Of a stretch of 64,000 nucleotides of DNA, positions 18,786 to 63,783 are shown in pieces (position 1 is the first letter of the stretch; every line of letters starts with the position of its first letter). The position numbers were made by a program, and so were the translations under genes. The notes below the pieces were generated by a model. That model saw nothing but the letters and a program-made list of their open reading frames with translations, had not been told where the DNA came from and ran no database searches. This stretch comes from a virus (lineage: Duplodnaviria > Caudoviricetes), in IMG/VR virus record IMGVR_UViG_3300029448_000025, positions 653 to 64,652 of that record; one strand, given 5' to 3'.

Positions 18786-19478
18786 TGGCTTTAATAGACC
18801 TCTCGACTATCTACTCTACAAAATCTGTAAAGTGGTTGCATAATTTACATAACTCGCATTTCAAAAACCTGACAATAACGGAGACTGAGTATGTTCTCAG
18901 TCAAATGGGCGAAGTAATGTCTATGCGCAAACTCGGCAGAAAAATAGGTTTGATGGCTACAATCATTTATGAGTTTGAAATAGGTGAACAATTTAGCGCA
19001 GAAAAACTAAATCAGAGGGCGCGCAAATACATTTGCGATAAAATGTCTTTGACAAACGACAGCGTGGGTGCTATTCTGCGCCTATTCAAAAAGTGGGGCG
19101 TAGTCCACCGAGAGCCTAAATTGGTCGGCGGTCGAGTAACATACATAAGGATGAGATAAAATGAAAATAAACTTTAAATGCTTAAATTGCGAAAATATGA
19201 TTAACATTGAATTGGGAGAAAAAGGTAGCGGCGCTCAGGTTTCCTGTAACTACAATGGGTGCGGGGCGATTATGCGCATTGACGCAGAATTAACTCCCGC
19301 AGAAAGAGATGAGAGATACAGAGATGCCGACTGGCTCGGACTGAACTACGGAACAATGGGTCGCAGTATGGCGAGCATAGCCAAAGAATGTAGAGTATCT
19401 CCTATGACAATCCAACACTGGTTGCAGACGCACGCAATAGAAACACGCAGTCGCGGTCGCCGCAAGAAAGTGGTTTGA
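18782..19478 (+). CDS. wHTH protein (18782-19159) and Zn-ribbon plus HTH protein (19161-19478)
   Basis: VGAILRLFKKWGVV; CLNC...C...C and SMASIAKECRVSPMTIQHWL. Confidence 0.6.
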
Positions 19479-27358: not shown

Positions 27359-27430
27359 GGGCTTGTAGTGTAGAGGAAGCACACCCTCTTTGGTTGAGGG
27401 AGGTCGGAGGTTCAAATCCTCTCAAGTCCA
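27359..27430 (+). tRNA. tRNA-Pro(UGG), CCA not encoded
   Basis: Acceptor GGGCTTG/CAAGTCC-A, D arm GTGT/GCAC, anticodon arm CCCTC-TTTGGTT-GAGGG, T arm GGAGG-TTCAAAT-CCTCT. Confidence 0.88.
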
Positions 27431-27435
27431 CTTTA

Positions 27436-33400: not shown

Positions 33401-34623
33401 ACTGCATCTAAAGACCAACCTTTACTTGTTGTTAAAGAGTTGCCAGTTGCCGCAATAGAACCATTAGTAAAATGAGTTGTGCTATCGTTTAAATACGCTT
33501 TCCATGTGCCGCCAGCATGGTCGAAAACAACATAAATATCCGCCCATATTTCATCTGCATTGTATATTCGTGCGCTACTTTCGCCATCATCCCACTTTCT
33601 AAAAACACCGGAACTATAACTCATTAGCGTTGCAAGGTCAATTGCCACTGTTGCTAAAGGCGTTGTATCACTCCACTCGCCTGTCGATTTAGTAAAAGTT
33701 GCACTTGATTTGTAGCCAATTTTTAAAGAATAAGTCATTGGCACACCATCCATAATTCGATGTGAAGCCATCCTTATGTGAAAAACTTCACCTAAACCAC
33801 GCAAACGCAAAGGCCCATCATAACTAATTAGTCTTTCAGTGCCGCTTGATGCTTGAGAATAAATGTTATTTATTAAAAATGGCATTTCACTTGGCGAAGT
33901 AATGTCATGCAAATAATTATCAGGTCTTGATTCTGTAATATCCATTGCTGTTTGCGGCCCTTCGCCGGTATAAACACTTGCAAAATGAGTTCTTTTTATT
34001 GCGCTTAAAGCCCACTGAGAATCGTCTTGTTGTCCTATGCGAGCATAACCTCCTGCAAGTGGCATTTTTGCGGCAGGAAACCATGAAGAATCCGCAGGAA
34101 TATAACTGTCTGCGCCAAATGTTAAATCCATAACACCCATTGGCGCAAAATAAGAGCCGCTTGTATCATGTCCGTTTGTAAAGTTAAGGTATGAAGAACC
34201 ACTCGCACCATTAAATCGAACTCTGTTTGCCGATAAAGAAGAAGGATGTTGTAGATTTGACCTATGTTCATAATCAGAACCAATTGACGGGTCAATAGTT
34301 AGCCATTCATGGATTCCTCTATTTATTGTAAGTTTATTTGCGTTATTAGTAATAAATGTATTAAGTCCTTCATCAACATCACTTTCTGCACGCACAGGGT
34401 CGCCCGAAGCATAATGCCCACTGCGCAGACGGTCAATGTAAGAATACGCATAGCGTGGATTTAGTATATTAGTTCCGCCAAAAATTGAACCATGATGAGA
34501 GTTTTCGTGGTCGTGTGTGCGTATTGTAGCGTCGTTTAAATCGTCTGCAATTGCTCTTGCACCGTTAAAGTCGTCGTAATAACCTGAAAGCCAAAATGTC
34601 TGTTTTAACCCTATTGACTTCAC
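27436..34623 (-). CDS. Giant tail tip / baseplate-adhesin protein (~2400 aa)
   Basis: Directly downstream of the tape measure gene; beta-rich G/S/T/N composition; GTG at 34623 overlaps the TMP stop and has an AGGTGG SD. Confidence 0.7.
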   Translation of the reverse strand: MKSIGLKQTFWLSGYYDDFNGARAIADDLNDATIRTHDHENSHHGSIFGGTNILNPRYAYSYIDRLRSGHYASGDPVRAESDVDEGLNTFITNNANKLTINRGIHEWLTIDPSIGSDYEHRSNLQHPSSLSANRVRFNGASGSSYLNFTNGHDTSGSYFAPMGVMDLTFGADSYIPADSSWFPAAKMPLAGGYARIGQQDDSQWALSAIKRTHFASVYTGEGPQTAMDITESRPDNYLHDITSPSEMPFLINNIYSQASSGTERLISYDGPLRLRGLGEVFHIRMASHRIMDGVPMTYSLKIGYKSSATFTKSTGEWSDTTPLATVAIDLATLMSYSSGVFRKWDDGESSARIYNADEIWADIYVVFDHAGGTWKAYLNDSTTHFTNGSIAATGNSLTTSKGWSLDAVWANLNSKTHLCTNTLIDRVGVILPLNYNIGNTVAKPEVGKFAFKYGTNNVSTLNLSIYDDSNEYALAALTTGVGATEWRLLAFRDEEERPIWSGVVESLNHKQNKHQQTLETIITARDSSAILNRVLPLWETGGSATFSLNEHISMSSTSSQVNFDTLSLLTKMNMGASSLTVGNSDLGHNFYNVVNSVKFQKDSSARTHLNSGSAIQMYMGEDEDGPNFPDKEWAGFGFDNDTYSLSEIIAVQHKVDGTANTRSFYVEWEEATDPTFASSGVSQYATVLSTYKGLAAGDTITVKGTGYDGDYAIATNGLIAHKRRYNSAGNGSIDVNTYLCEIRCDFTGADETTDRLFEVDKWTCKSIHYRSKLDETTNRSVVKSVMFELRTRASHSLAIGDVFILPSGIGTTGSSFLKASPLKVVAVPSATTVHVELESWPSALAVSDTATVTSNYGMAYNLTKINSDDSKRYPLVKPVLFEGALLTDAEHQAVKNRNIHARIMRDLPLSPFFKAQFGIIDAIPLWRAGAGSNLNTPKSAQYIATHGAGSYNSNGTVTGWDGLHADIAQGATSIVIDEPAILHLFNYHDMRHGILELVDIETNDSQHVIFSGVSGTLTEAATSWDLSDEEFTSGSGTWTVGNIVIHEGFSDNLLNGLFQITAAAGSGVYKASKISFEAGVNEFAYMNARNLNASSWNYGTARHYSDPDGVKVRLTEPHITERRTANSNATFEPVDDTGTIKYLNSAQITLTGVKGVKRKWQADKTIYSLRNNSSDSYKHLYVLWADMRNDGTADADGGFRKNDFGLLLPTSDNYKVQLTVADQFNEGGEPDVYTELKIGEDIDIWKFDAESEPYTGNAWCSLAGGSNDEPLDTRYANWDETAGAFVIIDASRYYNLNTAATGGRSGYSSGGQVDFGDYTLAVAGTPYLTDSYWKNAVLSFKNNDDATFIKHKNQKYMINDFSFLNQDIALSDTTIFVDDVSQFDTAGYGAIVCRKGDSRSAEDLIYYYSWTGKGVDATKGDKLTGVYITSYPNGNLIGPKSLEVLLKADVAGGATGSNAVIDLVGTDGAGVFKSAIVYNTTAALFSLRLMTNLQGYIPSANSGTFFAHDKLRTIFNLLTADTWAKNSALPLMYNFGGVPNTKNMTITQLAASGSDTDSFGSIIDAKATTVLNLLNQMSDKEGSGIGGNTKTFTWSVNRDNMLTFRPSYASGHTLTRSNMLMSSLNTQIGSQATNIRVFYNGNTNYADYPEAVSGEVTRWRILQQPKIFSADEALSIAKQEYARENTARVSITAQMVRAAGESDIMLYGARYGYVQDVFRQGTKAHIDSNASWCNIWGGSPFSGIQSALESAQTTFNKPAENSRNLGKFHSAILQTDTLQSKGVEPRVRGPVSVGVDVSTGSSLLNIVESGSAPNRVHTAKFAQNGGSPVYGATKALADGWNFLEPNTGSTQLSIYCQSGLGSRTGTAGTYTMNFAEGIERGYNSAYSWHGSNSLSYALNIIHVDKGTNLVSATTTNKLRLAITIDSGSTADNVVFRVWLLDYTFDEAPDAGNKPPQNDISSLSGSSSVLVNGNGYYPITIPSSYQGDTSKKLFVSVNVEYLRALVRKIITGSTINAHNIDGLSTYSSFNLASPFPLGVRQHPVFGHMGNERASYYAPRVAIVKDINYLPSTTLTFTDTHIDLETQTLSINSVGWSKDEQQVEKVILGLERTERHFAYSLAQVISGGANNPAKPESGPPASPDPSPAIPPSSGGGDAVNPRPALPPPTVGGGSSQTNNNQGYDVNMMSNAALRVIKGRASFSSDTHASAGSWGIIGQKKPSVALSSDRDIDGIDSILSTGEGVAMKTNEGFVLAGITDSESGEQGEIHTHSMTVRVPNDISTGIVGLEGALTLDTISSGGSALITTTITCKETGQSISQNTTVAMGTSRESTTLLTTQNLDGAETAGNTLVIEISRSPARSGDSAPYQSLVIHNTSVKMRRNSIHSNAQSDNFKPY

Positions 34624-37600
34624 GATATTCCACCTGTCGCTCTCCACTCTGCTAATACTCCCTCCGACACCTGAGTAACCATTTCAGGCAAAGTCATTCC
34701 ATTGAAAATGTTTGTTTGAACAATTTCAGTTTTATGCAAAAGGTTTTCAATACCTCCTTGCGATACTTGTTTCATAAGTGTTCCTGTAAAGTTTTGTCGC
34801 TGTCCGAAAAACAACTCTTCACGGGCATTGGCAAATTGAAATGCGTCGCCTAAAATCTCTTCATTAGCCGCTTTTTCTGCGTCAATTATTTCTTCATTAT
34901 TAGCAAGAGTAGTGCTAAGAAGTGCGTTTAAGTAATCTTCATGTTGCATAAGAGCAGTTATATTATACTCTTCTTGAAGTTCAAGTTTTCTTGCATCTCT
35001 TTGCTTAATAGTATCGAACTCTTCTTGAATATACTCGCCTTGCAAATTAGTGTAAGAAAGTCTTTCTTTAGTCGTTACTATTTCACCTCTATAATGTTTT
35101 CCAAAATAACTTGCCCTTGAAGTAATACTTTGGTCTTCTGTCATTTCTAACCCTCCTGCCGCTAATACAGCAGAAGTTCTCGCTAATTCAGTTTGAGATT
35201 TTTGTAACTCTTCTAAGGTTATTTTAGCGGCTTCTGCCGCCGCAATATCCGCACTAAGTTGATTTGCCAAAGCGTCATTACTACCCGCCATACTTTTACT
35301 TTCATTTAATTCTGCCAGTTCTACATCAAGTCTTGCGATAGCATCTGCCGCACCATTTGTTGCAATAATATCTGCATAAGTTTCATCAATAACGCCTTCT
35401 AAAATTGAACCTTCTCTTGAAGAAAGAGATGCGAGGTTTGTTTCGGTATTCATTAAGCCTGTGTTAAAAGAATCAATTTGCGCAATTTCTTCTGCCAAAA
35501 AGTCTTTGCCTCCAAACAAAGCCTTGCCGCCAAAGTAAGCACCGGCCATTACAGCCGCCGCAATGAGAAGGTTCATTCCTCCTGTTAAAATAGTTTGAAG
35601 GAATACTCCCTCTGCCATAGCAACATTTAATGCAGTCATAGCACCCATAAGCATAGGAAAAGCCATAGTAGCCAACATGACTGCCATAACACCTGCTTGA
35701 GAAGCACCGTCGCCAACCAACATGAATAACATAGATAGTGGCATCATAGCCTTTGTTACGCCTTGAACACTTATTCCGGCCATACCCATAGCAAAATTAT
35801 ATTTAATCATTGCACCTGTGCTTGCATTTACACCTATTGCCTCGTTACGGATTTGCAAGTTTCTTTTCTTTAAAGCCGCACTGGATTGTTCGCTTGCAAG
35901 AATATCCATTTGTATAGCGTTTCTCTTTTTCATTAACGCTTCTTCTTCTTTTTGATATGTTACCAAAAGTTCGTTGAGTTCTTTGTCTTCTTCGTCTATT
36001 AACCTTAATTTAGCAATACTGGATTGAACCTCGGACTTTTTAATACCTGCTAATTGTATTTCAGTGTTCAATTGTCCGACTTTTGTTCTTGCCATTTGCA
36101 ACTCTGCTTCATTAAGAGGATTTGTTAAAGTAAGAGTTTGAGATAAATACGCAATCTCTCTTTCTTGAGTCATTGCGAGCGTGTCCTGAGCCTTTGCTCT
36201 TTCTATCATACCCTTTGTTCCCTGAGACTGCAAAGCATTGTAATGCGCAACAGCAGAAGCGCCTCCTGTGTTTAGTCCAATAAATCTTTTTTGAACTGCT
36301 TCTTGCGCCTGTGTTTTTAAAGTCAGTTCTCCTAATTCAGTATTAAGAAGTTCAATATCTATTTTTAGTTTCTTCATTCCTTCTTCACTAAATATAACTG
36401 TTTGTCCTGTAAGTATGTTAAAGGCATTCCGCATTTTACCTGCGGCAGTTGCACCTAATTCTAAACTTTTACCCATAGCAGTCATTGTTGCTTGCGCAGA
36501 CTCCATAGTAAGTTTTGTTTCTAAGGATTCTTGATTAAGAGCGTTGAGTTTTAGAGTAGCCTCATAGATTTCATTGCCAAACAACTGATTCCTATAAGTC
36601 AAACCTTGAAGGTGAACTAAGTTTTGTTTATCGGTAATTGCCATATTTTGTTTTGCAGTCGTTAAAAACTTAATTTCTTCTCTTGTTGCCGCATAACCTT
36701 GCGCTTCTGCGTAGAACTGCGGATTAGATGCTTTGCGCACTGCGTCTAATGTTTTAAACGCAATCATTAAATTAAATACACTAAATCCAACATCTGCTAA
36801 TGGTTGAATCATTGCTTTGTATTGTCCTGAAAGAGCAACAAGGTTTCCAATTGCTTTACCGCCTAAATCAGTTTCCATTAGTGCGTCAATACCTTTCAGG
36901 AAAATTGCTTGTCCTTCTGCGGCTTTGCGGTATGAATCGGTTAATTTATCACCGATTTCAATTTGAAGGTTTGTTACAACAGCCTCTAATTGCTGTTGTC
37001 TAAATGAAGCGGTTTCTGCCCTAAGACCAAACTCTTCAAGTGCGCTGTATTGTCCGTGATAAGCCGCAGTTTGCAACTCAATAAGTCGAGGTTGGTTTTC
37101 CATTAACTTAAGAAACTTAACATAGTGGCGAGAACCTGCGATTGCAACAGCAAGGTTTCGTTTTTGTTCTGCTGTCATACTATCATAAGCAGGGCCAATT
37201 TCTTTAATAATATCGGTCAGTTTCATTTGCGTTATGCCGGTAGCATCTACGCCATCTATTAAGTCATCTAAAACTTTAACTGCTTCTGTATTTTCATTAC
37301 CTATGCGTTGATAAATCATACGCAAACCTGTTCCCGCACGACTTACTTCTTCACCAGTCTCAAGCAAAAGAGCAGACATTGCGGCCATTTCACCAATAGA
37401 TTCACCGGCAATAGACGCTTGACTTGAAAATTGGTTAAGAACAAAAGTAATATCCTCCATTATTGCAACAGAAGAGTTTTCAACGGTATTTAATTGGTCG
37501 AGAACTCGAATTGTATTTCCACGCACTATATTGGCTTGTTGTTCCGCAGTCATTAACTCATACTGCGCATCCGTTAAACCGCCCATCATAAAACCTGTTT

Positions 37601-52560: not shown

Positions 52561-53228
52561 TTATTTTTTAGATGATTTAGGTTTCTTAGTTGATTTTGCG
52601 GTTTTTTTCTTTGCAGGAGGGATAATATCGTAGTTACCATCTTTATTTAGACGATAAACTGTGCCATCGGCCTCAGTCCACTCTTTGAGTTGCTCACTCA
52701 TACTTAATCACCTCAAACAATACTTTCTTGGTAAGTAATATAAACATCACAAATACCGGCTGTAATAGCGGCCCCTGCAATAGTAAGTAAAAGATTATGC
52801 GCACCTGCTAAACCAATTGCACTTCCACCGGCAGTAGCGCACAATTCCCAACCAACAGTAGCGGCGGCAAGTGCGGCATCGTCAAAAGCAGTAGCGGCCA
52901 TAATACCGGCGGCTGTTCCTGTATATCCAAGAGCGATTGTTGCGCTACCCGAAGAAGTAAATGCTTGGGTCGGAACTACTAAAAACGATTTGATAAATGT
53001 TCCGGCGACAAGTGTTTGCGCTGTTCCGTCTGCGGCAGTTAAAGTTTTAGCGCCAGTAGTCTTTGAAGAACCGTCATAAGAAAACTTTAGGGTCTTTTCA
53101 ATAGTAGTTGCTGTCTTTGCGTCAGTTACGGAGTCTGCTTGTAGTTTTGCGGTTGATACCGACAAATCATCAAGGTGTCTATTTTTAAGAGCGCGGTCGA
53201 GTTGCGAGTTGGTGTGTCCTACTGCCAT
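52561..53228 (-). CDS. Putative virion protein (52713-53228) and small basic ORF (52561-52701)
   Basis: TQAFTSSGSATIALG...G..DVYITY beta-sandwich; SD GAGGTGA before the 46 aa ORF. Confidence 0.55.
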
Positions 53229-53431
53229 AATGATACACAGAAACCGTTTGACTTATCAAAGTATTGGGTAATCCATACTAAAAATTATTAAGCAAACAAA
53301 ATAAAAAGTTAATTAGGGCGTTAAAATGATAGATTTTACCTTTAATGGAGTAGTTTTAATTGGCGGTAGCACACTTTTGATACTTGAGTTAATTTGGTGG
53401 GCATTAGTGTTTTTGTTTATTCTTTTTAGAC

Positions 53432-53627
53432 GAAAGAAAAAATTAAGAAAGAATAAAACGATTGACTGAATACAAATTGCTATTATTCTTTATTCTTTAC
53501 TAAGAGATAAAAAACTATTATCTAAGTAAATAATAAGCGGCCCAATATCTAAACACTTAAGAAGAATTAAAAGAATAAATCGAATAGGCTTTCAGTGCCT
53601 TGTTTATTTCTTTTTTAATTCTTTCAA
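53432..53627. repeat. AT-rich palindromic element B, inverted homolog of element A
   Basis: AAAGAATAAATCGAATAGGCTTTCAGTG...TTATTTCTTTTTTAATTCTTTCAA matches the reverse complement of 6855-6915; TATTCTTTATTCTTTACTA matches the reverse complement of 6978-6996. Confidence 0.65.
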
Positions 53628-53687
53628 AAGCATAAAAAGAATTAAATTGCGCAATACCTTATAAGCCAAACCTATTAAGTGCGTAAT

Positions 53688-54914
53688 ATGGCAATAGAAT
53701 ACCATGATGCTGTTAAAAAAGAAATTGATGAGCATTATACTGGAAACATTATGGCTTTTTCAAGACACATGCACAGTATTATGCCTGAAATAACAAGTGA
53801 ACAGCATAGATGGCGTTTGCGTATGTTAAAACAACATATGTCGGAGATTTTTCCTGTTTTTAAAAATGTTGATTATAATGCAGAAATACCAAAACAATTT
53901 GACGGCACTCAAGCACAGTTAATACGCATTATGCACAAACGGTTTCCTGAAATCTCAAAGTCAGGTTGGGAGTCAAGGATTCGGGCGGCATGGGAAAGAG
54001 AAGCGGTTACTCGCACAGAAACACCCCATTTTATTGTCGAACACTTGAAAAAGAAGTCAAGTAGTCAAGAAGACCTATGGAATGCTATTGAAGAACGCTC
54101 AAAAGCGGCGATTCTTGCAAACACAGATGCTCGTTGGGCTACATTTCACATGAAGTCCGATAAACGATACATTGGCATTGCATTTCAAAGCGACCAACAC
54201 ATAGGCAATCCATTTTGCGACCATGAAAGGTTGCGCGAAGACACAGAAGCAATTGAACGACACCCTGAATGCTATGTTATTCATGCGGGTGATTATATTG
54301 ACAACTTTATGATTGACAAACCTCGACCTGCTATGAAAGCACCTATTCCTCCTTCTATCCAATGGCAACTATGTGAACACTACATTAACATGAGTCCTAA
54401 TTCACTTATGGCTATTGTTGCGGGTAATCACGACCTTTGGACTGCCGGTGCAACAGATTATGACCCTCTAAAGCGTCTTGCGCAAGACAGAGGCGTTTTG
54501 TATCACCCGTATGAGTTAAACCTCAAAGTTATTCACGGCGATATTCCTTATCACCTTAGTATTCGACATAAGCGAAGAGGTAATTCAAATCTCGACCCAA
54601 GCCGTGTAATTAAGAAAATGTGGGATGACGGAGAATGTGATTTTGACATTGGAGTTATCGGACATCATCACACGCCATCAGTTGTTCCTTTTACTCGACA
54701 TGCAGTTGAGCGTTGGGCTTTAAGGCCGGGCGCATACAAAACAATAGACAGTTTCGGTGAAATGTGCGGTTTTCCGAGAGAACGCCCAACATCCCCTATG
54801 GTTGTCCTTGATTCTCAAACAAGAGATATTCAAGCATTTACAGACCTTAGACATGGACTTAGACTTCTTAACACTCTTAATGGAAGGAAAGCAAATGCCT
54901 ATATGGAAGAGTGA
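53688..54914 (+). CDS. Calcineurin-like metallophosphoesterase with duplicated N-terminal helical repeat
   Basis: SDQHIG, GDYID, GNHD, RH, GHHH. Confidence 0.85.
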   Translation: MAIEYHDAVKKEIDEHYTGNIMAFSRHMHSIMPEITSEQHRWRLRMLKQHMSEIFPVFKNVDYNAEIPKQFDGTQAQLIRIMHKRFPEISKSGWESRIRAAWEREAVTRTETPHFIVEHLKKKSSSQEDLWNAIEERSKAAILANTDARWATFHMKSDKRYIGIAFQSDQHIGNPFCDHERLREDTEAIERHPECYVIHAGDYIDNFMIDKPRPAMKAPIPPSIQWQLCEHYINMSPNSLMAIVAGNHDLWTAGATDYDPLKRLAQDRGVLYHPYELNLKVIHGDIPYHLSIRHKRRGNSNLDPSRVIKKMWDDGECDFDIGVIGHHHTPSVVPFTRHAVERWALRPGAYKTIDSFGEMCGFPRERPTSPMVVLDSQTRDIQAFTDLRHGLRLLNTLNGRKANAYMEE

Positions 54915-55092
54915 TGACGAACAGTTAATCCTTACTGAAATGGGGCATGATTATGTCGCATTTAATATATTTTCAGAAGAATTAGTTATTGGCATTATGC
55001 TTAATAGAAATGAAATTGAAGAGTTATGCAACTCTTTGCTTGAATACTGTGGAATACCTGTTTTTGAGGTGAAAAACAATGATGAAGAATAG
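54895..55092 (+). CDS. Small hypothetical protein
   Basis: 65 aa ORF coupled to the terminase gene. Confidence 0.5.
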   Translation: MPIWKSDDEQLILTEMGHDYVAFNIFSEELVIGIMLNRNEIEELCNSLLEYCGIPVFEVKNNDEE

Positions 55093-56578
55093 AATAATGA
55101 CTGCTCTTAATATGGAAAGAAGCAGGTATGACATTAAACATTTTTATGAATGGCTTGGCTACAATTGGGGCGACCACATAGGAGAATGGTTAAAACTTTA
55201 CAGTGAAAGAGGCGAAAGACAAGTTCACCGTGTATGCGTAATTGCACCTCGCGACCACTCTAAATCAACAACTCTTCGAGTAAAAGTTCTTCATCAATTA
55301 CTTTTTGAAAAGTGGCGAGGTAAACCGTTTACTATTTGGTTGTTTTCCGCTAATAAAGACCTTGCGATAAACAGACTTGATGAAATAAGACAAGACCTAA
55401 AACGACATCCTGAATTGTCAAGACTTATTGATGTAACAAAAGGAAACAGATATGAGTTGCGATTAACAAACGGCGCTTGGATTAAGGCAACATCCGTTGG
55501 TTCAGGTATTCGGGGCGAACATCCAGCCGCAATTGCTCTTGACGATGTATTAGACGACCAAAATGATATGTCTTATGATATAGTCCAACAATGGTTCAGA
55601 AAAAAATTAACACCTATGCTATCGCCCGGAACTTCTATTTATTGCGTCGGAACGCCTATGTCAATGAACGATTTATACCATACTGAAATGCTAAGTAATG
55701 AGTCTTGGCAATCATGGCGTAAAGGTTCTATTGTAAATTATGACGAATGGAGAAATGACCCTGATAATGTAAAACCTGTCTGTCTGTGGCCTTCTGAAAG
55801 ACCTATTGAGTTTTTGCTTGAACAACGACAAGCAATTGGTGATTTAGCATTTGCGCAAGAATACCTTTGTAAAGTAGTCGATGACGACAGCGCAGTTTTC
55901 CCTCAACAACTTACACGCAAAAATATGAACATGGATGTTATACTGCAAAATAAAAAAATACATGACGGGCGCTATGTTATAGGCTTTGACCCTTCACATG
56001 GCATAGGAAAAGACTACACGGTTATGGTTGTTCTGCGTCAAGACAAAGAAGGCTTCATACATATTGTAAATATGTGGCGAAAAAACGATTTTCCCCCAAA
56101 TAAACAAATTGAAATGATTGGAAAGTTTAATGACGCATACAAACAGCCAACTTTTGCTTTTGAAAGCGCAGGTTTTCAATCTCTTTACAAATCTCTCGTT
56201 GAACAAAGCAAATTGACGCTCGATATGAAAATGAGCAAGGTATCAAACAAAACACTCAAGCAAGGACTACTAAATCGCCTCCGAGTATGGTTTGAACAAG
56301 AAAAAGTCGTCATACCCTATGGAAACGACGAAACAAGACGGGTTATGAGCATCCTCCTTGACGAATTGGAGTCGCACGCATGGAAAAACGGCGATATTGT
56401 CGATAAAGGCAAGCATAATGACACAGTTATGGCCTTTGCGCACGCAATAGACCAATTTAAGACAGGCTTTAACGCCGGATTAGCCATGACAACAGGCCAA
56501 ACTGACATATCTAAGTGGAACACAGCAAAAATTAACAAAAATAAGCGAGTTTCAAGCAAATATGTGCCTTTTTTCTAA
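55079..56578 (+). CDS. terL: Terminase large subunit
   Basis: APRDHSKST (Walker A), IRGEHP..IALDD (Walker B), VGTP, FAQEYLC, IGFDP...DYT, FES, HNDTVMA. Confidence 0.92.
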   Translation: MMKNRIMTALNMERSRYDIKHFYEWLGYNWGDHIGEWLKLYSERGERQVHRVCVIAPRDHSKSTTLRVKVLHQLLFEKWRGKPFTIWLFSANKDLAINRLDEIRQDLKRHPELSRLIDVTKGNRYELRLTNGAWIKATSVGSGIRGEHPAAIALDDVLDDQNDMSYDIVQQWFRKKLTPMLSPGTSIYCVGTPMSMNDLYHTEMLSNESWQSWRKGSIVNYDEWRNDPDNVKPVCLWPSERPIEFLLEQRQAIGDLAFAQEYLCKVVDDDSAVFPQQLTRKNMNMDVILQNKKIHDGRYVIGFDPSHGIGKDYTVMVVLRQDKEGFIHIVNMWRKNDFPPNKQIEMIGKFNDAYKQPTFAFESAGFQSLYKSLVEQSKLTLDMKMSKVSNKTLKQGLLNRLRVWFEQEKVVIPYGNDETRRVMSILLDELESHAWKNGDIVDKGKHNDTVMAFAHAIDQFKTGFNAGLAMTTGQTDISKWNTAKINKNKRVSSKYVPFF

Positions 56579-56700
56579 AAAATCGGCAAAAATTAAAAAA
56601 AATATAAAAATTGTGAGAGGTGGTTGGCGTGCGTAGCCCCGTCAGTATGCGCAGTTTTTGGCGCACCTAAAGCGCAGGTTCAGGGGCCGCAATTATTTTG

Positions 56701-58188
56701 CCTAAACGACGCACTGCGAGCCTGTTTGTCTGCGTGTTCTGCGCAGTTCATGCTCGCGCAGGTGCGCGTCATCACGCCACACGCCTTATGCGTCTGTTTT
56801 TCGATTTGCGCCAAAAGTTTCTGAAAGGGCCACTGAGAGCCTGTTTAGGGCCAATAATCCACTATTCAACTCAAGGTTCAGTAGTGCGAATGGCACATAG
56901 CGAGGCTGTTTGACCTTCTGCGCAACCCCAAATATGCGACCTTCTGCGAGACTCCAAGCGATTCATTCAGAAAACCACGCCAAAATTGACGCCTCAGAGC
57001 CTCCCCCATAGCCCCGCAGTCTATCGTTTAGACCACCCTCAAACGACCTTCTCAGAGTTGAAACCTCAGAACTCAAAACCGTTGCACTGCGCCCCACCTT
57101 AGAAACTGCGTGAACCGTTGTTTTCAAGTATCAAACCGCCGTTTTCCGGTTTACCGCCATACATGCCGAATATGTGCAATTTCTCAACATTGCCGAAAGA
57201 GTCCGTTTTCACCATACCGGCACTGCGGCGCAGTCTATCGAATGACTACTGAACCGATGGTTCCCCTATGGTAGCACTCCCCGCAATTTTGCGCAGAGCC
57301 TCAGTGCATCGAATAGAAAGCAACGGGGTGCGGCTATTGCATCATCGACTTTCGGCGTTTTCTGCGTGTTTTCTAAAATCGCCGTTTCCGTTCCGTTTGG
57401 GCTGTTTTTGGTTTTTCATCGAATGTCGGAAACCTGCAATTTATCCCGCCGATTCTGAAAAAAACGATGGACTGCGAAGCCGACACTAAAACCCCGCAAT
57501 CCCTAAACGATGCACTGAGAGCCTATGAGTTCTAAACGCCGCACTGCTCGACCGGCGGCCCCATGTCGGCTTGACATCGACCGGACAACAGCCCCGCAGT
57601 CATGCGTTTACCGATTCGGCCTCGCGTGCATGATGCGCGTGCGTATGCGAGATTTGGGGGCTTTGCGTGGATTGTCTAAACGATGGACTGAGAGCCTATC
57701 CTCTCTCCTGATTCGATGCCTAAACGATGGACTGCGCCGCTATTTTCCGGTTTCCGACATGACCTGAAACGACCTTTTCGGCCAAACAGCGCCGCAGTGT
57801 TGCTTTTAGACCTGTTTTCTGAAATGCTAAACGATAGACTGCGAGCCTATTGATATTCTGCTCTGCGCCGTATTCCTAAACGATAGACTGAGAGCCTGTT
57901 ATTTTCCTAAACGATGGACTGAGAGGCGGAGAACCCTAAACGATGGACTGCGAGCCTGTCGCCTAAACGCTATACTGCGCCGCAATTGTAGAGCAGTGCA
58001 TCGAATAGATTCTGCGAACACCCCTAAACGATAGACTGCGCCCCGATTGTCTCTCAGTGCGCCGTTTTTTTTCAGGAGATTTCGACAAAATCAAAACCCG
58101 CAACCGTCGAAGATGTGCATATAAGAACTGCGCCGTTTTGCTTCAAGGCACACTGCGAGCCTGTCGCCGTCGCAGTGCATCGTTTAGG
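56701..58188. repeat. Dispersed array of the bipartite motif (CCT)AAACG-N4-ACTG(C/A)G(AGCC) in the non-coding region
   Basis: + copies at 56701, 57461, 57502, 57532, 57676, 57719, 57827, 57875, 57906, 57935, 57962, 58023; - copies at 57015, 57229, 57300, 57595, 57993, 58053, 58171; further degenerate copies. Confidence 0.92.
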
Positions 58189-58256
58189 TTGCTTCTGCGC
58201 CGTTTACCTTCTCGCTTCATATACTCCCATGAGAGAGGTGAAACCGGAGAGATACC

Positions 58257-60863
58257 ATGATACAAAATATATGTATGAAAATAATGGCCTTCATCCTCGC
58301 AGTGGTGCTTTTTACCACTGCGGCGGGTGTCGGTCTTGAGCAAAACCCTTTGACTGAGGTTGAAGGAGAAGACAACATGAACAAAGAAAACGACGCACTG
58401 CGCCCCATTTGGGCAGAGTTGCCTGAACAAACGCACATCTCGCGTTCGCGAGTCAAGCGTTTTCACCGCAAGCAACAATTGCGTGAACAGCGCCCCCGTC
58501 ATGCGTTCAAGCGAGCATTGCGCCGCTTGTTTTCTTTAGGGCATCTGCGTGAAGAATCGAAAGGTTCAGGCGTTTGGATTCTTGACAAAAGAAGCACACT
58601 GCGCCGCATTTCGGACTTCTTGAGCCATCGGGTTCAAATTATCCGTATTGGCTTCGCAGTCCGTCGATTAGCGAAGGAAACCGCGAAGAAGAACGCAGAA
58701 CTCACACTCGCGAGTGATGCGTTTTCATCCGTTGAAATTGCGCCGCAGTCAAACGAATTGTTTGAATATCAGTGGGATGAGGTCTGCGAGTGTAAAACCT
58801 GCGGAGATTTCACCGATGAAGTCGATTTGACCCTTGAAAATGGGCCGCAGTGCATCGAATGTTACTTAGACGAAACCGACGCACTCACGCAGACACGCGA
58901 CGACATCGACAAATACGCAGACTGCGAGCCGGTCGATGGTCTTTTGTCAGACCTGAACCCCGACCTCGTAGAATACGGAAACGCTACACTGCGCCGCACT
59001 TTCTGCGTCGTTGCTGTTATCGCGGTTTTGTATGCTTTCGACATCACTCAATTGTCTTTCAGTCTTGCGTTTATCGGCGCAGTTCGCACGCCCAAGCCTC
59101 AATGGTTGAAGGACGCGGAGAACTCAGGCGTTGAAGTGATTTCAAAGGGTCGCAGTGTTCCGATTTCAGGCCGAAAGGAAAACACACGGGTGAAGTCCTG
59201 CGCCGCTTGCGGTTGCGATATTCCCGCCGGTCAATACTTCGCCCAACTGAATGCGAAGAAGGGAAACGGTGAACCTTTCGCCTCCTTAAAGCCACACTGC
59301 GAGACATGCACAGCCGAATATATCCAAGTTCATCAAACGATAAAATCGTATCGCTCAGGCGCACATAATGCGCCTGTCGCGAGTGCCTCGGTTTCTGAAC
59401 CTGAACCTGAACCTTTGACCGTCAATGTTCAAAACAACGCACTGCGCCCCAATTCTTTCAAGGGAACATGCGCAGTTTGTAGCGTTGAAGTTCCGTCGAA
59501 GGCGGGATTCATTCACGCAGAGAGTCCGAAAGGGCATAAAATCCGATGTGCTGAACACGCAACTGAGGCGCTGTTTATCGGTTCAAACGGTGAGCCGATT
59601 CAAGGCAAAAAGTCCAACGGCGCAAGCCGTGTGATTCCTGAACCTTCACAGGCTCTCAGTCAAGCGGTTAAGGCGCAAGTTTCTGCGTCGTTGCCATCGA
59701 CTGCGCAAGGCGATAAAATCGAACTTCTTCAAGCGTTGCTTTCAGGCGATGGTTTGAATGAAGAACAAGTGCGCAGTGTTGCGAAAGCGGTTGTTGAACA
59801 ATACGCAGAAACTGCGATTCAAAACGGCGTTCAAAACGCTTCTGCGCATGTTGAAGAACGGATTGAAAAAGTCGTTTCAGAATTGAAGGCTCAAGAAGTC
59901 ATCAAAACGCTACACATCAAGCCATCGAAGAAGGCCAAAGCGGTGAAAATATCAGGCGCTTATCATCCCGCAGTGCCGACCGTTTTCTCAATCCTGAAAG
60001 CGGGGCTTCTCAATGGCTCGCCGTTGCCTGTTTACATGGTGGGCGAAGCGGGAACCGGCAAGTCTTACGCAGTGGCTCAGGTTCAAGCAATGCTTCAAGC
60101 GGCTAAATTGCAGAGCAGTAAAGCGTATGGAGAAATCATATGCTTCGCAGATATGACACGGGGCGACCTTCTCGGTAATGTGAAGTATGGCGTGGGCGGT
60201 AAAGGTTCTATTGAATGGCAACGCAGTGGCCTTGTTAAGCCGCTTCTTGAAGGCGGCGTGGCCTTTGTCGATGAAATAGACAAAGCAGACCCCGCAGTCC
60301 TCGTTTTATTGAACGGCGTGCTTGCATCGCGAACCGTCATCAATCCGGCAACGGGTGAAGTCCTGAAAGTGCATCCTCAAGCGGTGATAATCGCCGCAGG
60401 AAACACCGGCGGTCATTCGATGGGCGGCGCTTACAAAGCGGCGCAGATTCAAGACGCCTCGCTTCTTGACCGATTCGCCGCAACCGTAGTGAAGTTTGGA
60501 TTTTCCGCACGCATTGCGGCTTCAATATGTGGCCTCAGTCATTCGATGGCCGAACCTGAAAACAGTCCACGCGGTGAACCTGCGCAGATGTCCGAGGTTT
60601 TGAAATCCTATACCGAATTGCGCCAAATTGTAGTGGGTCAAACCACTGTGCAATACAGCAACCGCGCCCTTCTTCATGCGTCGGTTTTGGCTAAAGACGG
60701 GTGGACTCTGAACGCCATTATTGGTCGATGGGTTGAACCGCTTGATTCTGAACTCCGCAGAGAGGTTTTGAATCACTTCGGAATGATAGACGGCGAGGCT
60801 CTTTCATTGGTTCCGCAAGGTGTCTTTGAACCTGAATCCGTAGATATTGCGGGAGGCGCTTAA
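58257..60863 (+). CDS. MoxR/CbbQ-type AAA+ ATPase with N-terminal hydrophobic segments and Zn fingers
   Basis: VGEAGTGKS, FVDEID, AAGNT, LLDRF; CKTC...CIEC, CAAC...CETC, CAVC...CAEH. Confidence 0.85.
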   Translation: MIQNICMKIMAFILAVVLFTTAAGVGLEQNPLTEVEGEDNMNKENDALRPIWAELPEQTHISRSRVKRFHRKQQLREQRPRHAFKRALRRLFSLGHLREESKGSGVWILDKRSTLRRISDFLSHRVQIIRIGFAVRRLAKETAKKNAELTLASDAFSSVEIAPQSNELFEYQWDEVCECKTCGDFTDEVDLTLENGPQCIECYLDETDALTQTRDDIDKYADCEPVDGLLSDLNPDLVEYGNATLRRTFCVVAVIAVLYAFDITQLSFSLAFIGAVRTPKPQWLKDAENSGVEVISKGRSVPISGRKENTRVKSCAACGCDIPAGQYFAQLNAKKGNGEPFASLKPHCETCTAEYIQVHQTIKSYRSGAHNAPVASASVSEPEPEPLTVNVQNNALRPNSFKGTCAVCSVEVPSKAGFIHAESPKGHKIRCAEHATEALFIGSNGEPIQGKKSNGASRVIPEPSQALSQAVKAQVSASLPSTAQGDKIELLQALLSGDGLNEEQVRSVAKAVVEQYAETAIQNGVQNASAHVEERIEKVVSELKAQEVIKTLHIKPSKKAKAVKISGAYHPAVPTVFSILKAGLLNGSPLPVYMVGEAGTGKSYAVAQVQAMLQAAKLQSSKAYGEIICFADMTRGDLLGNVKYGVGGKGSIEWQRSGLVKPLLEGGVAFVDEIDKADPAVLVLLNGVLASRTVINPATGEVLKVHPQAVIIAAGNTGGHSMGGAYKAAQIQDASLLDRFAATVVKFGFSARIAASICGLSHSMAEPENSPRGEPAQMSEVLKSYTELRQIVVGQTTVQYSNRALLHASVLAKDGWTLNAIIGRWVEPLDSELRREVLNHFGMIDGEALSLVPQGVFEPESVDIAGGA

Positions 60864-60948
60864 GCGTAAACTGCGCAAGCATATGACGGCCAGTTTATAC
60901 TTGCCCGATGCTACGCAGTCAAACGAAAATGGAGGTGAAAAAGTGAAT

Positions 60949-61962
60949 ATGAAACATCAATTTCAAGGTCGGAATAAGAAGCGGCTTGAGAACCGACATG
61001 TCGATGATGAAGGGTGCGAATATGGCACTGCGACACTTGGAGGTTCTAAGTGCGTGGTTTCGATTGCTCCGAGTCATGGCGCAGTCATCCGTTCATTGCA
61101 TGGCGGGTCTAAGATTTCAGGCGGCGAACCGCATGACATCAACTCCCCGTATCAATCATTTCATGGGCGCAGTGCATCGAAAGAAGAAGTTTACGCAGAG
61201 GGTTTGAAGGGCGCAAGTCATCAACCTGATGCCGACGCCGTTTCAAAGCACGCAAAGCGATTCGATGCCATCAAAAGCCTTGTTTCAAAGTCCGTGAAAA
61301 TTGTCCGAAAAACGGAAGACTTCGCCGGTAAAGTCGTTGGACTTGACATCGGCGCGGCATTGCGTGGTGATGCGTTTATACGCAACAAAAAGCGACGGCG
61401 CACTCAATCCGAATGTGTCGCCATATTTGTTCCCGTGAATGCGGTCGGGTCGGTCGATTCTCGCATTTGTCAAATCCGCAGTAGTGCGGCGTTGGCATGT
61501 GCGCAAATCCTTGAAGACTCAGGCCAACCCGTTGAAGTCTATGGGCTTGCGTGGTCTTGCGGCGTGTCTATCGGTTATGACGGTCTAAGCGTGGTTAAGG
61601 TCAAGGGTTCAAACGAACCTTTCAACCTCGGTCAAGCGGCTTCGGCTCTGTCTGCGTGGTCTTGGCGTTCTCTGATTTTCGGGTTCCGTGAACTCGGATT
61701 CGCAAACGCCCTTGAGCATCGAATGACCGACGGCGGCGGCAGAAGCATGGTTCCAACTAAGCGATTCTGCGCCGAACTTGCCGACCTTCTCGGATGTCAA
61801 AAGTTCGCCTCAATTGCCCATATTCCCCGACGGGGAACCCGATGGACTACGGCCAACGCTGAGAAAGAAGTCGAGCAATGCACAGACGCCCTAATCGAAG
61901 CACTGAAAGGCATTATGAAGAATGATGATGCCTTTTCAGGTCTGAACTACGGGAGAGACTGA
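60949..61962 (+). CDS. vWA-domain partner of the AAA+ ATPase (degenerate MIDAS)
   Basis: Directly after the AAA+ gene; LDI.AAL.G, VAIFVPVNAVGSV, LE.SG.PVEVY, VKVK...P; SD GGAGGTGA. Confidence 0.7.
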   Translation: MKHQFQGRNKKRLENRHVDDEGCEYGTATLGGSKCVVSIAPSHGAVIRSLHGGSKISGGEPHDINSPYQSFHGRSASKEEVYAEGLKGASHQPDADAVSKHAKRFDAIKSLVSKSVKIVRKTEDFAGKVVGLDIGAALRGDAFIRNKKRRRTQSECVAIFVPVNAVGSVDSRICQIRSSAALACAQILEDSGQPVEVYGLAWSCGVSIGYDGLSVVKVKGSNEPFNLGQAASALSAWSWRSLIFGFRELGFANALEHRMTDGGGRSMVPTKRFCAELADLLGCQKFASIAHIPRRGTRWTTANAEKEVEQCTDALIEALKGIMKNDDAFSGLNYGRD

Positions 61963-62548
61963 GAACCATTGAAAACGGTGGACTGCAATACATTTGAACA
62001 ACTTTAGAAAGTCAAAAAGGAGGTGCGAAAAAGAAGGAAAAGGATAGATTGAGAGATGTGGCCCCGTGTTTCTCAAATCCAAAACATTGCGCAACGGGGC
62101 ATTTTCTCATGCCGATTGGCTCGCAGTGTAGCGTTTAGCCACTGCTTTCTTGCCTCGGTGATTCTCCGCAGAAGTGGCCGATAGGCTCGCAGTCAAGCGT
62201 TTTTACCGCCGCCGCCATTCGACGTGCGATTGATTCTGCGCCGTTCTGTTTTTTCCGGCCTGAAATCTCAAACCTCAAATCTCAAATCCAAAACGACCCC
62301 GCAGTTTTCAATGCGTGGATTTTGCGCTCTACTGTTTCTGCGGAGTTTGAAATCCCCACCTAAATGCGCCCGAAAATACCACAGAAATATTTTGCCCTTT
62401 CTCGCACATGCCTTGCGTGTGCCTTGCGTGCGTGCATCATGTGCGCCTTTTATTTTTTATCGCATGACCCGCATATGTTGGGTTTCAGGCCAAAAATGGG
62501 GGTTTTGGGGCGGTCATTTGATAAGGTGTGGCGCTTTCGCTTAGGTTG

Positions 62549-63783
62549 ATGAGAACGAAAACTCAGATGATAAACAAGGCGAAAAGAGCGATTGAAGAGG
62601 GAACGGTATTCACATACCTGTCCTCGCATATGTTGGGGGTTCCGGCTGAGAGGTTGCACCGTTTCACGGTTCAAGGTTTCTGCAATCAATACGGCCCTGC
62701 TTGGGCTGTCATTCTATGCGACTGCGCAACCGGCGAAGAAAGGAAACTGGTTTTAGAAAACTTCGCAAAGCGATATACCGAGGTGAGCGAATGAGTTTCA
62801 AGCAATGCTGTGTAGCCTGTGGGCGTGAAATGCGCTACAATCCCGCACACTACCTATTCGCTTGTCGAACCGATGGTTGCGAGTGGATTTATCAAGGTGG
62901 CATATTCTTCAATACAGCCGATGATTCACAGGCGGTGGTCGCATGATTCTTTACATGTGCGGCGCATGTGGGGCGGATTACACGCTACCGAGAGATTTTG
63001 AAGCATTGAAGAAGTGCGCAAAGAATTGCGGTGAACCGCATTTGATGATGGAGGAATCAGAATGAGGGGCGGAATCATACGAAGCGCAGACCTTTGCGTG
63101 TGTCGCACAGGTGCGAAGGAGCAGTTTTACACCCTCTACATCGAGGTTCAATGTGTGCGCACTACTGCGCCGAAAGGCGTTTCATACTCGTCATGGTTTG
63201 TTCAGAACCTTGCGCATAAGAAGGAGGATGCTATCGCTAAAGCCGAGGAACTCGGCACAGAATTAGAGGCATGGGGCCACTATGATGAAATCACACTCTC
63301 CTTTCACGCAGAACCACGCCCGATATACACGCGCTATGTTGCCTTTGGCGACATTGAAATGAAAATGTCAAAATCACGCAAAGTCTGGTGGGGCAACACC
63401 AACGAAGAGTTTTGGGATGCGTGGCGAGCAGACAAGGCCGCAGTTAAGGCCGCAGGTTACTGGGTCAAGCGCAACGAAGACGGCAAATGGCTTTTGTTCC
63501 GCAGAGTCGAAGCCGATGAAATCGAATGGAGGCATGAATAATGAAGAAGGAAGGGCAGATATTTACAGCATGGATTAGCGGAACTGCGGTAATCGCTCGC
63601 AGAACTACGCTTAGATGCACCCCTTGCGAAATCAGAGTTCAGGGCGAACCTGTATCATGGGCCTATAACATGGCGAGTGAGGCGGAAACTACGCACTACG
63701 GCTTTCTATGCAAAGGTTGCGGGAGAGATAGCACGCTCTCAACCGATGAAATCCGCAGAATAAAAAAGGGAGTGGGCGAATAA
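62549..63783 (+). CDS. Start of the early micro-ORF operon (62549-62794, 62791-62946, 63062-63541, 63541-63783)
   Basis: TTGATAA box at ~62518, coupled ORFs, SD sites, CxxC motifs. Confidence 0.65.

Follow-up and report, generated by a model that had tools for sequence, protein, structure and literature searches.

An asymmetric ~25-nt element forming a dense array across noncoding and coding DNA beside the terminase gene of an uncultured marine phage lineage

The window considered here is the whole analyzed stretch of 64,000 nucleotides, bases 653-64652 of a single 64,652-bp viral contig (IMG/VR record IMGVR_UViG_3300029448_000025; Caudoviricetes). The phage encodes a large terminase (55079-56578), portal, tail tube, tape measure, B-family DNA polymerase, clamp loader, nucleases and a DNA methyltransferase. 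Its structural genes are on the minus strand, from 53.2 to 27.4 kb, and plus-strand genes run from a noncoding field next to the terminase gene across the contig junction to about 27.4 kb. At the head of this plus-strand block lies a domain of ~5.5 kb crowded with copies of an asymmetric unit of ~25 nt (the 25-mer) built around a 12-nt core (the 12-mer), which occur both in the field and in the two protein-coding genes that follow it. The principal features of the domain are as follows:

56579-58256, no strand assigned: noncoding repeat field of 1,678 bp, flanked by the large terminase and AAA+ genes, in which the motif is densest
56700-56727, plus strand: first 25-mer copy, ~122 nt past the terminase stop and positionally the most conserved one
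57458-58071, plus strand: tandem array of 15 copies (weight-matrix matches), of which eleven are plus-strand copies at 22-107 nt spacing
58139-58189: inverted copy pair (58139 plus, 58162 minus), ~70-120 nt before the AAA+ start codon (repeats I7, I20, I23 and I24)
58257-60863, plus strand: AAA+ gene of 868 aa, with an N-terminal extension followed by a MoxR-type AAA+ domain (residues ~570-745)
60847-61962, plus strand: DUF7192 gene of 371 aa (Pfam DUF7192, E 1.9e-9), with four exact 12-mers, all on the minus strand
62113-62140 and 62179-62206, minus strand: two strong distal 25-mers (scores 36 and 32) in the 261-bp gap after the DUF7192 gene, marking the distal boundary of the domain

The 12-mer, CG-N4-ACTG(C/A)G, occurs 41 times in the window, as against a mean of 2.66 in 100 dinucleotide-preserving shuffles (sd 1.81, maximum 8). 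Thirty-four of these matches fall within 6.5 kb, between 56707 and 63169 (18 in 56579-58256, 15 in 58257-62202 and one at 63158), and just seven in the remaining 57 kb; the rest of the genome thus has no comparable density, in agreement with the impression recorded in an initial annotation of this DNA that few matches lie outside the domain. Genome-wide, the core hexamer ACTGCG/CGCAGT is 6-7 fold enriched in its own right, which lifts the 12-mer background slightly but cannot account for the cluster. The 12-mer proves to be the core of the asymmetric unit cCTAAACGAT(G/A)GACTG(C/A)GAGCCT(A/G)T, in which the blocks TAAACG and ACTG(C/A)G start 10 nt apart, i.e. one helical turn, and are followed by a GAGCC(T) tail. 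A weight matrix built from the copies (~26 bits) recovers 36 sites in the window, 34 of them at 56700-62206. The densest part of the motif is noncoding and lies upstream of 58257-62202, the interval singled out in the initial annotation. The 13 individual 12-mers listed there are all real, ten of them exactly where they had been placed and three displaced by 1-3 nt (58391 instead of 58388, 58982 instead of 58979, and 61477 instead of 61478); equally real is the 26-bp direct repeat at 62111 and 62177 (family D8; 88% identity), each copy of which includes a 12-mer (62122 and 62188). A scan of 16 other intergenic gaps for a shared motif uncovered nothing related to the 25-mer, and a literature search with the 10-mer ACTGCGAGCC returned, among the matches listed, unrelated eukaryotic work.

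The field is the largest noncoding region of the genome and contains no open reading frame (ORF) of 81 aa or more. Beside its exact 12-mers it holds 19 weight-matrix copies scoring at least 20 (13 on the plus and six on the minus strand). In the tandem array the plus-strand copies are interspersed with four minus-strand ones (57586, 57784, 57983 and 58044); the repeat families D1-D5 have spacings of 49, 31, 29, 27 and 61, and plus-strand copies 27-49 nt apart run through 57825-58049. A multiple alignment with seven relatives (A1) shows the motif copies of the field as conserved islands separated by diverging spacers. BLASTN searches with the field against cultured phage records found no match, and the region from 53 to 64 kb gave no match to Rfam at E-values up to 1. 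The RNA folding z-score is -3.0 for 57440-58256 and -0.5 for 56579-57440 (20 shuffles each), the former value being expected from the inverted motif copies present there. In addition to the repeats, the field contains three other elements:

56579-56618: AT-rich tract of 40 bp, directly after the terminase stop
56619-56665, plus strand: junction element, made up of the block GGTGGTTGGCGTG (56619-56631) and a stem-loop (56648-56665)
57544-57590, plus strand: conserved non-repeat block beginning GACCGGCGGCCCC, attached to a motif copy and conserved in A1

The junction block and stem-loop are near-invariant in A1, and the block follows the terminase gene in many lineages, including some that lack the array. 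The AT-rich tract, GAGGTGGTTGGCGTG and the stem-loop are likewise found after the terminase gene in L003-L014, L019, L021, L026, L029, L046, L069, L105 and other loci. The letters of the stem-loop vary by lineage with pairing retained, as in the 12-bp stem of L026 (read by eye, without a covariation statistic). This junction element could be a packaging or processing site, or mark the 5' end of a transcript. In the distant record G009 (locus L115), a motif copy is likewise followed by the non-repeat block GACCGGCGGCCCC.

The first of the two genes that carry copies codes for a protein with a clear AAA+ domain (Pfam AAA_5, E 2.1e-17; PDB sequence matches to midasin, NorQ with E 8e-7, and CbbQ), and its alignment with homologs (A2) shows an invariant GxxGxGK and DE. 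Its N-terminal extension (400-590 aa) contains two hydrophobic segments, a basic stretch and invariant zinc-ribbon-like Cys pairs, and is longer in motif-bearing lineages than in others. Although sequence searches of the second protein found no match to a vWA fold, a Foldseek search with its low-confidence AF2 model (mean pLDDT 52.9) ranked the vWA chain of NorD, from NorQ-NorD complexes, in the first three places (E 3e-3 to 7e-3; TM 0.2-0.3). We found no literature under the name DUF7192. The gene pair is conserved across lineages, and the model suggests that the DUF7192 protein is probably a vWA-like partner of the AAA+ protein. Accordingly, the AAA+ half of the label AAA+/vWA previously given to this region is well founded, whereas the vWA half is plausible and weakly supported. 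With the MoxR AAA+/vWA pairs NorQ-NorD, CbbQ-CbbO and CobS-CobT the window pair shares the AAA_5 domain and, going by the low-confidence model, perhaps a NorD-like partner; it differs from them in the long N-terminal extension, with its hydrophobic stretches and Cys pairs resembling a zinc ribbon.

The AAA+ gene carries nine exact 12-mers and nine weight-matrix copies, within residues ~43-463; the matrix copies occupy its first 1.4 kb and core-only copies continue through its rest and the next gene. Eleven of the 13 exact in-gene 12-mers are antisense. As previously noted, the motif is written in several frames and on both strands: minus-strand copies are found in all three frames (7, 3 and 2), and two plus-strand copies share one frame. 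We evaluated these copies by shuffling synonymous codons within each gene 500 times, keeping both protein sequence and codon usage. The nine 12-mers of the AAA+ gene compare with a shuffled mean of 0.47 (maximum 3; none of the 500 shuffles reaches nine) and the four of the DUF7192 gene with 0.20, while the control genes, namely terminase, polymerase and methyltransferase, have none. Within the old AAA+ and vWA-like parts there are two copies versus 0.04 and four versus 0.20 in shuffles, indicating that the in-gene copies are not merely leftovers of the noncoding field.

Two relatives, L001 and L002, with terminases 99% identical to that of the window and motif regions differing by 5-25%, allowed a further test of selection. 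The fixed core bases of noncoding copies (eight per copy) are identical to L001 at 141 of 144 positions versus 1245 of 1446 elsewhere (p 2e-6), and to L002 at 142 of 144 versus 1303 of 1446 (p 8e-5). For coding cores the corresponding figures are 102 of 104 against a background of 87.7% in L001 (p 2e-4) and 98 of 104 against 90.3% in L002 (p 0.12); at third codon positions within cores they are 35 of 37 versus 79.0% (p 0.010) and 34 of 37 versus 83.3% (p 0.12). Together with the shuffles these values uphold the view that selection acts on the coding copies at the level of DNA. The peptides said to recur as a result do arise from motif copies, within ENDALRP, GNATLRR, GPQCIEC and GFAVRRL. The more general statement that the motif shapes the protein holds for codon choice and these short peptides; yet the N-terminal extension, home to most of the strong copies, is a conserved protein region in its own right, with its invariant Cys pairs and two hydrophobic segments.

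To place the array in context we compared the window with its relatives. A related terminase is encoded on 80 IMG/VR contigs, and cultured-phage terminases among the matches listed reach at most about 26% identity. All loci with a terminase identity of at least 77% that reach past the terminase carry the motif in the same place, and most loci at 75% or below have no motif there. In seven lineages the field holds 11-19 copies each, of which 82 of 95 are on the plus strand, and several sit at conserved offsets from the terminase stop (about +126, +253, +396 and +496); the positions of in-gene copies are not homologous between lineages. The first copy lies at +122 to +128 in the window, L001, L039, L009, L010, L014 and L011 and at +125 in L092 and L090, and it is inverted in L039, L009, L092 and L090. 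The distal copies match L001 and L002 at every position from -5 to +23 (100% identity), and those in the equivalent region of L006, L009, L010, L014 and L039 face the plus strand, in contrast to the minus-strand orientation in the window. Four relatives that are 98-100% complete contain 24, 16, 23 and 24 12-mers, versus three each for the reversed pattern, and 18 of 24, 13 of 16, 17 of 23 and 19 of 24, respectively, cluster in the homologous 5-6 kb after the terminase gene. Thus, the discrete domain of ~5.5 kb that the initial annotation had proposed recurs in each of them.

Beyond these lineages the element persists at low copy number. A search of viral contigs with an exact 19-mer found 21 stretches, and 12 of the 18 loci newly added by this search show a related terminase in the sequence available, down to 50% identity. 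Lineages at 54-60% terminase identity have one to four near-perfect 25-mers, always in noncoding gaps and on either strand. In two of these loci, L094 and L106, inward-facing 25-mers bracket an ORF of ~420 aa with a zinc ribbon (L094:11131-12387 and L106:4469-5734, both on the minus strand), which has homologs in L063 and L064, matches no Pfam or PHROG family and has no homolog in the window phage genome. In L095 and L089 the copies are oriented opposite to the genes around them. More distant complete records have one or two copies of AAACG-N4-ACTG(C/A)G, as against an estimated ~0.06 by chance and 0-1 for the reversed control; G009 has an inverted pair 135 bp apart in a gap of ~580 bp, and complete records G004 and G017 have no motif copy. 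The copies in G005, G012 and G009 lie 4-18 kb from the terminase gene (10-18 kb in G005), and G005 has no noncoding field upstream of its AAA_5 gene. In 596 Gb of bacterial DNA there are four isolated motif matches, versus an estimated ~17 by chance, and no array; the motif is not a bacterial repeat. Judging from these sequence comparisons, the 25-mer is an old, family-wide cis-element of uncultured marine phages that has been amplified in the lineage of the window.

The domain is also a hypervariable region, as seen when 58257-61962 is compared with the terminase gene. The AAA+ proteins of L001 and L002 are 78-89% identical to that of the window, with indels, despite the 99% identity of the terminases (55079-56578), and AAA+ identity drops to ~25-40% among relatives whose terminases are 77-82% identical. 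As a separate observation, lineages at 70-75% terminase identity have a noncoding gap of 1.1-2.3 kb in the same position (L027:11504-13000, L031:10059-12400 and L046:11507-12900), and gaps of this type hold different elements, mostly short palindromic hairpins such as CCCCCTTTAGGGGG and ACCATCGAAGATGGT. Seven loci of distant lineages (L048, L050, L053, L073, L075, L078 and L079) contain 35-59 instances of TCTCTC/CTCTCT per ~20 kb locus versus ~4 expected, and in L050 and L075 a 25-mer copy is located inside a GAGAGA-rich stretch.

A few matches in the window lie outside the domain:

63158-63169, plus strand: core-only 12-mer outlier, whose flanks do not fit the 25-mer
53582-53609, minus strand: weak 25-mer variant (score 19.6) in the divergent gap between the structural block (minus) and the packaging genes (plus)
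19161-19478, plus strand: gene for a 105-aa zinc-ribbon and helix-turn-helix (HTH) protein, with an out-of-domain 12-mer inside it (19362-19373)

L009, L015, L069 and L092 have weak sites comparable to that at 53582-53609, placed -2.85 to -3.12 kb from the terminase stop; this divergent-gap variant is present in five of the 17 lineages examined, against a background of no matches in 25.8 kb of the late block.

We favor, at a probability of roughly 45%, the reading that the sites of the domain form an array bound by a sequence-specific protein, which in this way controls the head of the early gene block. Protein binding, the nature of the protein and the regulatory outcome are what we infer from the sites themselves, their clustering, conservation and mixed orientation, the selection on them as DNA, and their amplification from a low-copy state. 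In mechanistic terms, the 25-mer would be an asymmetric protein-binding site of ~25 bp, ancestrally present in one to four copies in noncoding control gaps, which the lineage of the window has amplified to roughly 35-40 copies: ~20 in the 1.7-kb noncoding field that heads the plus-strand early/replication block, ~13-16 weaker ones written by codon choice into the genes for the MoxR-type AAA+ and vWA-like proteins, and two strong ones that close the domain. A sequence-specific protein, probably phage-encoded, would occupy the tandem high-affinity sites, and its occupancy might extend across the weaker in-gene sites to the distal pair. The resulting nucleoprotein domain may then switch the first early transcription unit, either as a repressor or roadblock array or through titration of the regulator. 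We prefer a binding site to a promoter because the orientation is not fixed, the first site and the distal pair being flipped between lineages. Such an array would also account for the low-copy sites in control gaps on either strand, the genes bracketed by sites, the weak variant in the divergent gap and the tolerance of inversion.

The nearest parallel among phage operators is provided by the stoperators of Cluster A mycobacteriophages such as L5 and Bxb1, which are described as short asymmetric sites that number in the dozens per genome, lie in coding as well as noncoding DNA and are read by a monomeric two-domain repressor, with motif and reader varying together between lineages (PMC9283540, PMC6550527). 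The window motif likewise comprises many asymmetric sites in coding and noncoding DNA. However, stoperators are 13 bp long, spread genome-wide and predominantly in one orientation relative to transcription, whereas the window has ~25-bp sites confined to ~5.5 kb with a dense tandem array, in-gene copies that are mostly antisense and field copies that are mostly sense, and no repressor or integrase was found. Several points weigh against the binding-site reading: 1) the co-orientation of 82 of the 95 field copies in seven lineages fits iterons or promoters as well; 2) a tandem array of ~20 sites is unusual for an operator; 3) no repressor or integrase was detected in the ~80 ORFs scanned; 4) no promoters were located, and the early transcription unit is deduced from gene order alone; and 5) the candidate reader discussed below is nominated by a phyletic pattern with few independent events.

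This candidate is the protein encoded at 19161-19478, which combines an N-terminal zinc ribbon with a C-terminal HTH and a basic tail; all eight aligned homologs match HTH_23 (best E 1.6e-5). We examined twelve records that are at least 97% complete for a match to this protein (threshold E 1e-11). The nine records with a match all carry at least one motif copy; among the three without, G004 and G017 lack the motif altogether and G003 contains one variant copy (Fisher p about 0.045, with G004 and G017 being close relatives of each other and two incomplete motif-bearing records showing no match). This family-wide protein is a weak candidate, no more than a lead, for the reader of the 25-mer, and the presence of two DNA-binding modules in one small chain might suit a bipartite asymmetric site.

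Among the alternatives we consider a replication origin unlikely, although several features of the field speak for it. The tandem copies would then be iterons for an initiator, and the AT-rich tract or the conserved non-repeat blocks the unwinding region; copies in the adjacent gene would parallel the position of the lambda ori in gene O. Iteron arrays (the lambda ori inside gene O, P4 ori/crr, P1, F and R6K) are asymmetric tandem direct repeats of ~19-22 bp, sometimes inside coding sequence and with inverted copies near a neighboring gene, and usually number 3-10 copies in a few hundred bp beside an identified initiator gene. The eleven plus-strand copies at 57458-58049, with 22-107 nt between them (27-49 nt in the direct repeats), resemble this arrangement, as do the inverted copies by the start of the adjacent gene, the prevailing co-orientation of field copies and their location in the largest noncoding region of the genome; the 40-bp AT-rich tract is at the far end of that region. 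The cumulative GC-skew minimum also falls at about 52-60 kb, but the skew cannot be separated at all from gene orientation. In other lineages different repeats occupy this slot, much as origin/initiator pairs tend to be swapped between lineages. On the other hand, ~35-40 copies over 5.5 kb, running 4 kb into genes, exceed any usual iteron array, while the one or two scattered copies of distant relatives are too few for one. Scans of the window ORFs recognized no initiator, helicase or primase, and the adjacent AAA+ protein is of the MoxR/NorQ type, with a vWA-like partner and apparent membrane segments. The DnaA-box pattern TTWTNCACA occurs four times in the window versus 8.5 expected, and nowhere in 56.5-62.3 kb. 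The absence of DnaA boxes from the domain also bears on the notion of a packaging or DNA-entry signal, which we regard as distinctly unlikely. Under it the repeats would serve terminase recognition (cosB- or pac-like) or act as a T5-like injection stop or anchor on the first-entering DNA, in line with the first-injected segment suggested in the initial annotation. Here the field begins right after the terminase gene, by the deeply conserved block and stem-loop, and its first site keeps an offset of ~125 nt from the terminase stop across lineages. Its anatomy is also very similar to that of the T5 injection-stop region, described as 1,662 bp of noncoding direct and inverted repeats, conserved unlike the adjacent coding DNA (bioRxiv 10.1101/866236). 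The 1,678-bp field has both kinds of repeat, an architecture conserved in seven relatives and fast-evolving neighbor genes (terminase 99%, AAA+ 78-89%). However, the T5 region is part of a terminal repeat of ~10 kb and has paired DnaA boxes, and the window shows no sign of a terminal repeat and has a single dominant repeat family that spills into genes. A nick-site consensus is not given in PMC10644984. As for cos or pac, the motif adjoins the terminase gene in the window and related lineages but is 4-18 kb away from it in G005, G012 and G009. Furthermore, there is no end repeat, the contig is unbroken across the field, depth at the level of contigs is not doubled, and no small terminase subunit was identified. 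The nearest terminases are of the T4 type (about 24% identity), which usually package by headful without fixed ends, and known pac and cos sites have few copies. A candidate small terminase at 54757-55092 was rejected, being acidic, overlapping the upstream gene and undetected in distant motif-bearing loci.

Mobile-element ends or recombination-prone repeats of a selfish nature, with the in-gene copies as decaying fossils, are an improbable source of the array. The inward copies that bracket the ~420-aa ORF of L094 and L106 in the manner of terminal inverted repeats, the many indels and much faster evolution of the domain relative to the structural genes, and the non-homologous positions of in-gene copies would all suit such an origin. 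Yet our scans found no transposase or recombinase family, the field copies are mostly direct and unpaired, several site positions are conserved across lineages, the copies exceed their surroundings in conservation in both coding and noncoding DNA, and substitution must have created those within the old AAA+ and vWA-like domains (2 vs 0.04; 4 vs 0.20). We attach slightly less weight again to tandem early promoters for an unrecognized polymerase or sigma factor. Most field copies (82 of 95) do point to the downstream genes, a T7-type promoter is about as long as the 25-mer, and no sigma-70-like site matching at least 9 of 12 positions occurs in the field; this last absence is uninformative because intergenic DNA throughout the window shows no enrichment of sigma-70-like matches of at least 10 of 12 (3 of 20). 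Promoters of the T7 or N4 type are difficult to reconcile with the ORF scans of the window, which revealed neither an RNA polymerase nor a sigma factor, with the antisense orientation of 11 of the 13 exact in-gene copies, with the distal pair and the L095 and L089 copies that face against their flanking genes, or with a first site that flips between lineages. Two related ideas were dropped: a virion polymerase in the 2,403-aa ORF described below, which is Ser/Gly/Thr/Asn-rich and shows no polymerase motifs and no PDB sequence match, and a likeness of TAAA-N13-GCCTAT to the flagellar sigma-28 consensus, in which the spacing is 2 nt short, ACTGCG is without a counterpart and many copies are antisense. 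Finally, the suggestion of the initial annotation that the interval might be a terminal repeat, here a long one of ~5.5 kb collapsed in assembly, is hardly tenable. Clustering alone speaks for it; the 64,652-bp contig has neither an end repeat nor a second copy of the domain, and relatives' contigs carry it mid-contig in single copy with their ends placed differently. Nor is its coverage doubled: a 9,939-nt contig from the probable source run matches 52989-62927 without difference and has a word depth of 19.8, compared with 18.4, 18.7, 23.7 and 15.9 for its neighbors, in a coarse check with one word-depth figure per contig.

Separately from the 25-mer, the genome is strongly enriched in the palindromic word TGCGCA, which occurs 178 times in 64.6 kb (e.g. 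56647-56652) versus 11.9 expected from base composition, a 15-fold excess; TTGCGCAA occurs 28 times versus 0.9. Within genes there are 149 occurrences, in all three frames, against 31.6 +/- 5.2 in synonymous shuffles, and the density is 3.49/kb in noncoding and 2.66/kb in coding DNA. The excess is under selection at the level of DNA. Relatives in the motif lineage have 316 occurrences versus 27 expected, while other lineages have purged the word (0 vs 30 expected and 4 vs 53 expected). The methyltransferase as the cause was considered and rejected, as it is absent from the 98%-complete G001 and its matches in G002 and G003 are weak and partial. Literature searches on TGCGCA overrepresentation in phages returned unrelated work only. 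We also observed that AGCGCT and GGCGCC are absent or nearly so in every lineage of the family (0 in most groups), that CGCG is strongly depleted, and that GCAGC is missing from the window phage genome (0 vs 43 expected); this shortage looks like restriction avoidance. One might combine the two phenomena, such that the amplified domain of ~35-40 sites acts as a sponge or timer titrating the zinc-ribbon/HTH regulator, or as a T5-like entry stop-and-anchor, alongside the selection for TGCGCA, but we hold this joint scheme to be doubtful and quite unlikely. If true, it would mean that the lineage marks its own DNA with short words, which is undescribed for phages.

Elsewhere in the window, most of the structural block (27.4-54 kb) has a GC content of 37-41%, as against 43-52% in the plus-strand early/replication block and the motif domain, and a tRNA-Pro gene (27359-27431) is positioned where the two gene blocks converge. 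Next to it is one more feature:

27436-34647, minus strand: ORF of 2,403 aa directly after the tape measure gene, Ser/Gly/Thr/Asn-rich, with no family or PDB sequence match

This ORF probably codes for a giant tail fiber or host-recognition protein. Of the small plus-strand ORFs, 1637-2080 and 2077-2457 are conserved in four to five of five motif-lineage relatives and, because of this conservation, are probably real genes in preference to the overlapping minus-strand ORF 1975-2436. Together with 63062-63541 and 307-633 they form a set of small early ORFs shared by motif-lineage relatives and matching no Pfam family; 63062-63541 also has no Atlas match. When compared with five whole records, 1637-2080 was found in two array-less records as well, 63062-63541 in the close lineage only, and an Ogr-like ORF in none.

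The domain described here is a clear natural case of a noncoding signal overprinted on protein genes: several frames and both strands are used, and selection can be measured at synonymous sites. Its setting is a widespread family of uncultured marine phages. Comparison of the lineages shows how a cis-element has grown from one to four copies into a dense array. As a bait, the 25-mer offers a handle on the protein that may control the early region, the origin or DNA entry in these phages, whose early genes are without known function. Independently of this, the opposite treatment of TGCGCA, enriched in some lineages and avoided in others, opens a second way into the interaction of these phages with their hosts.

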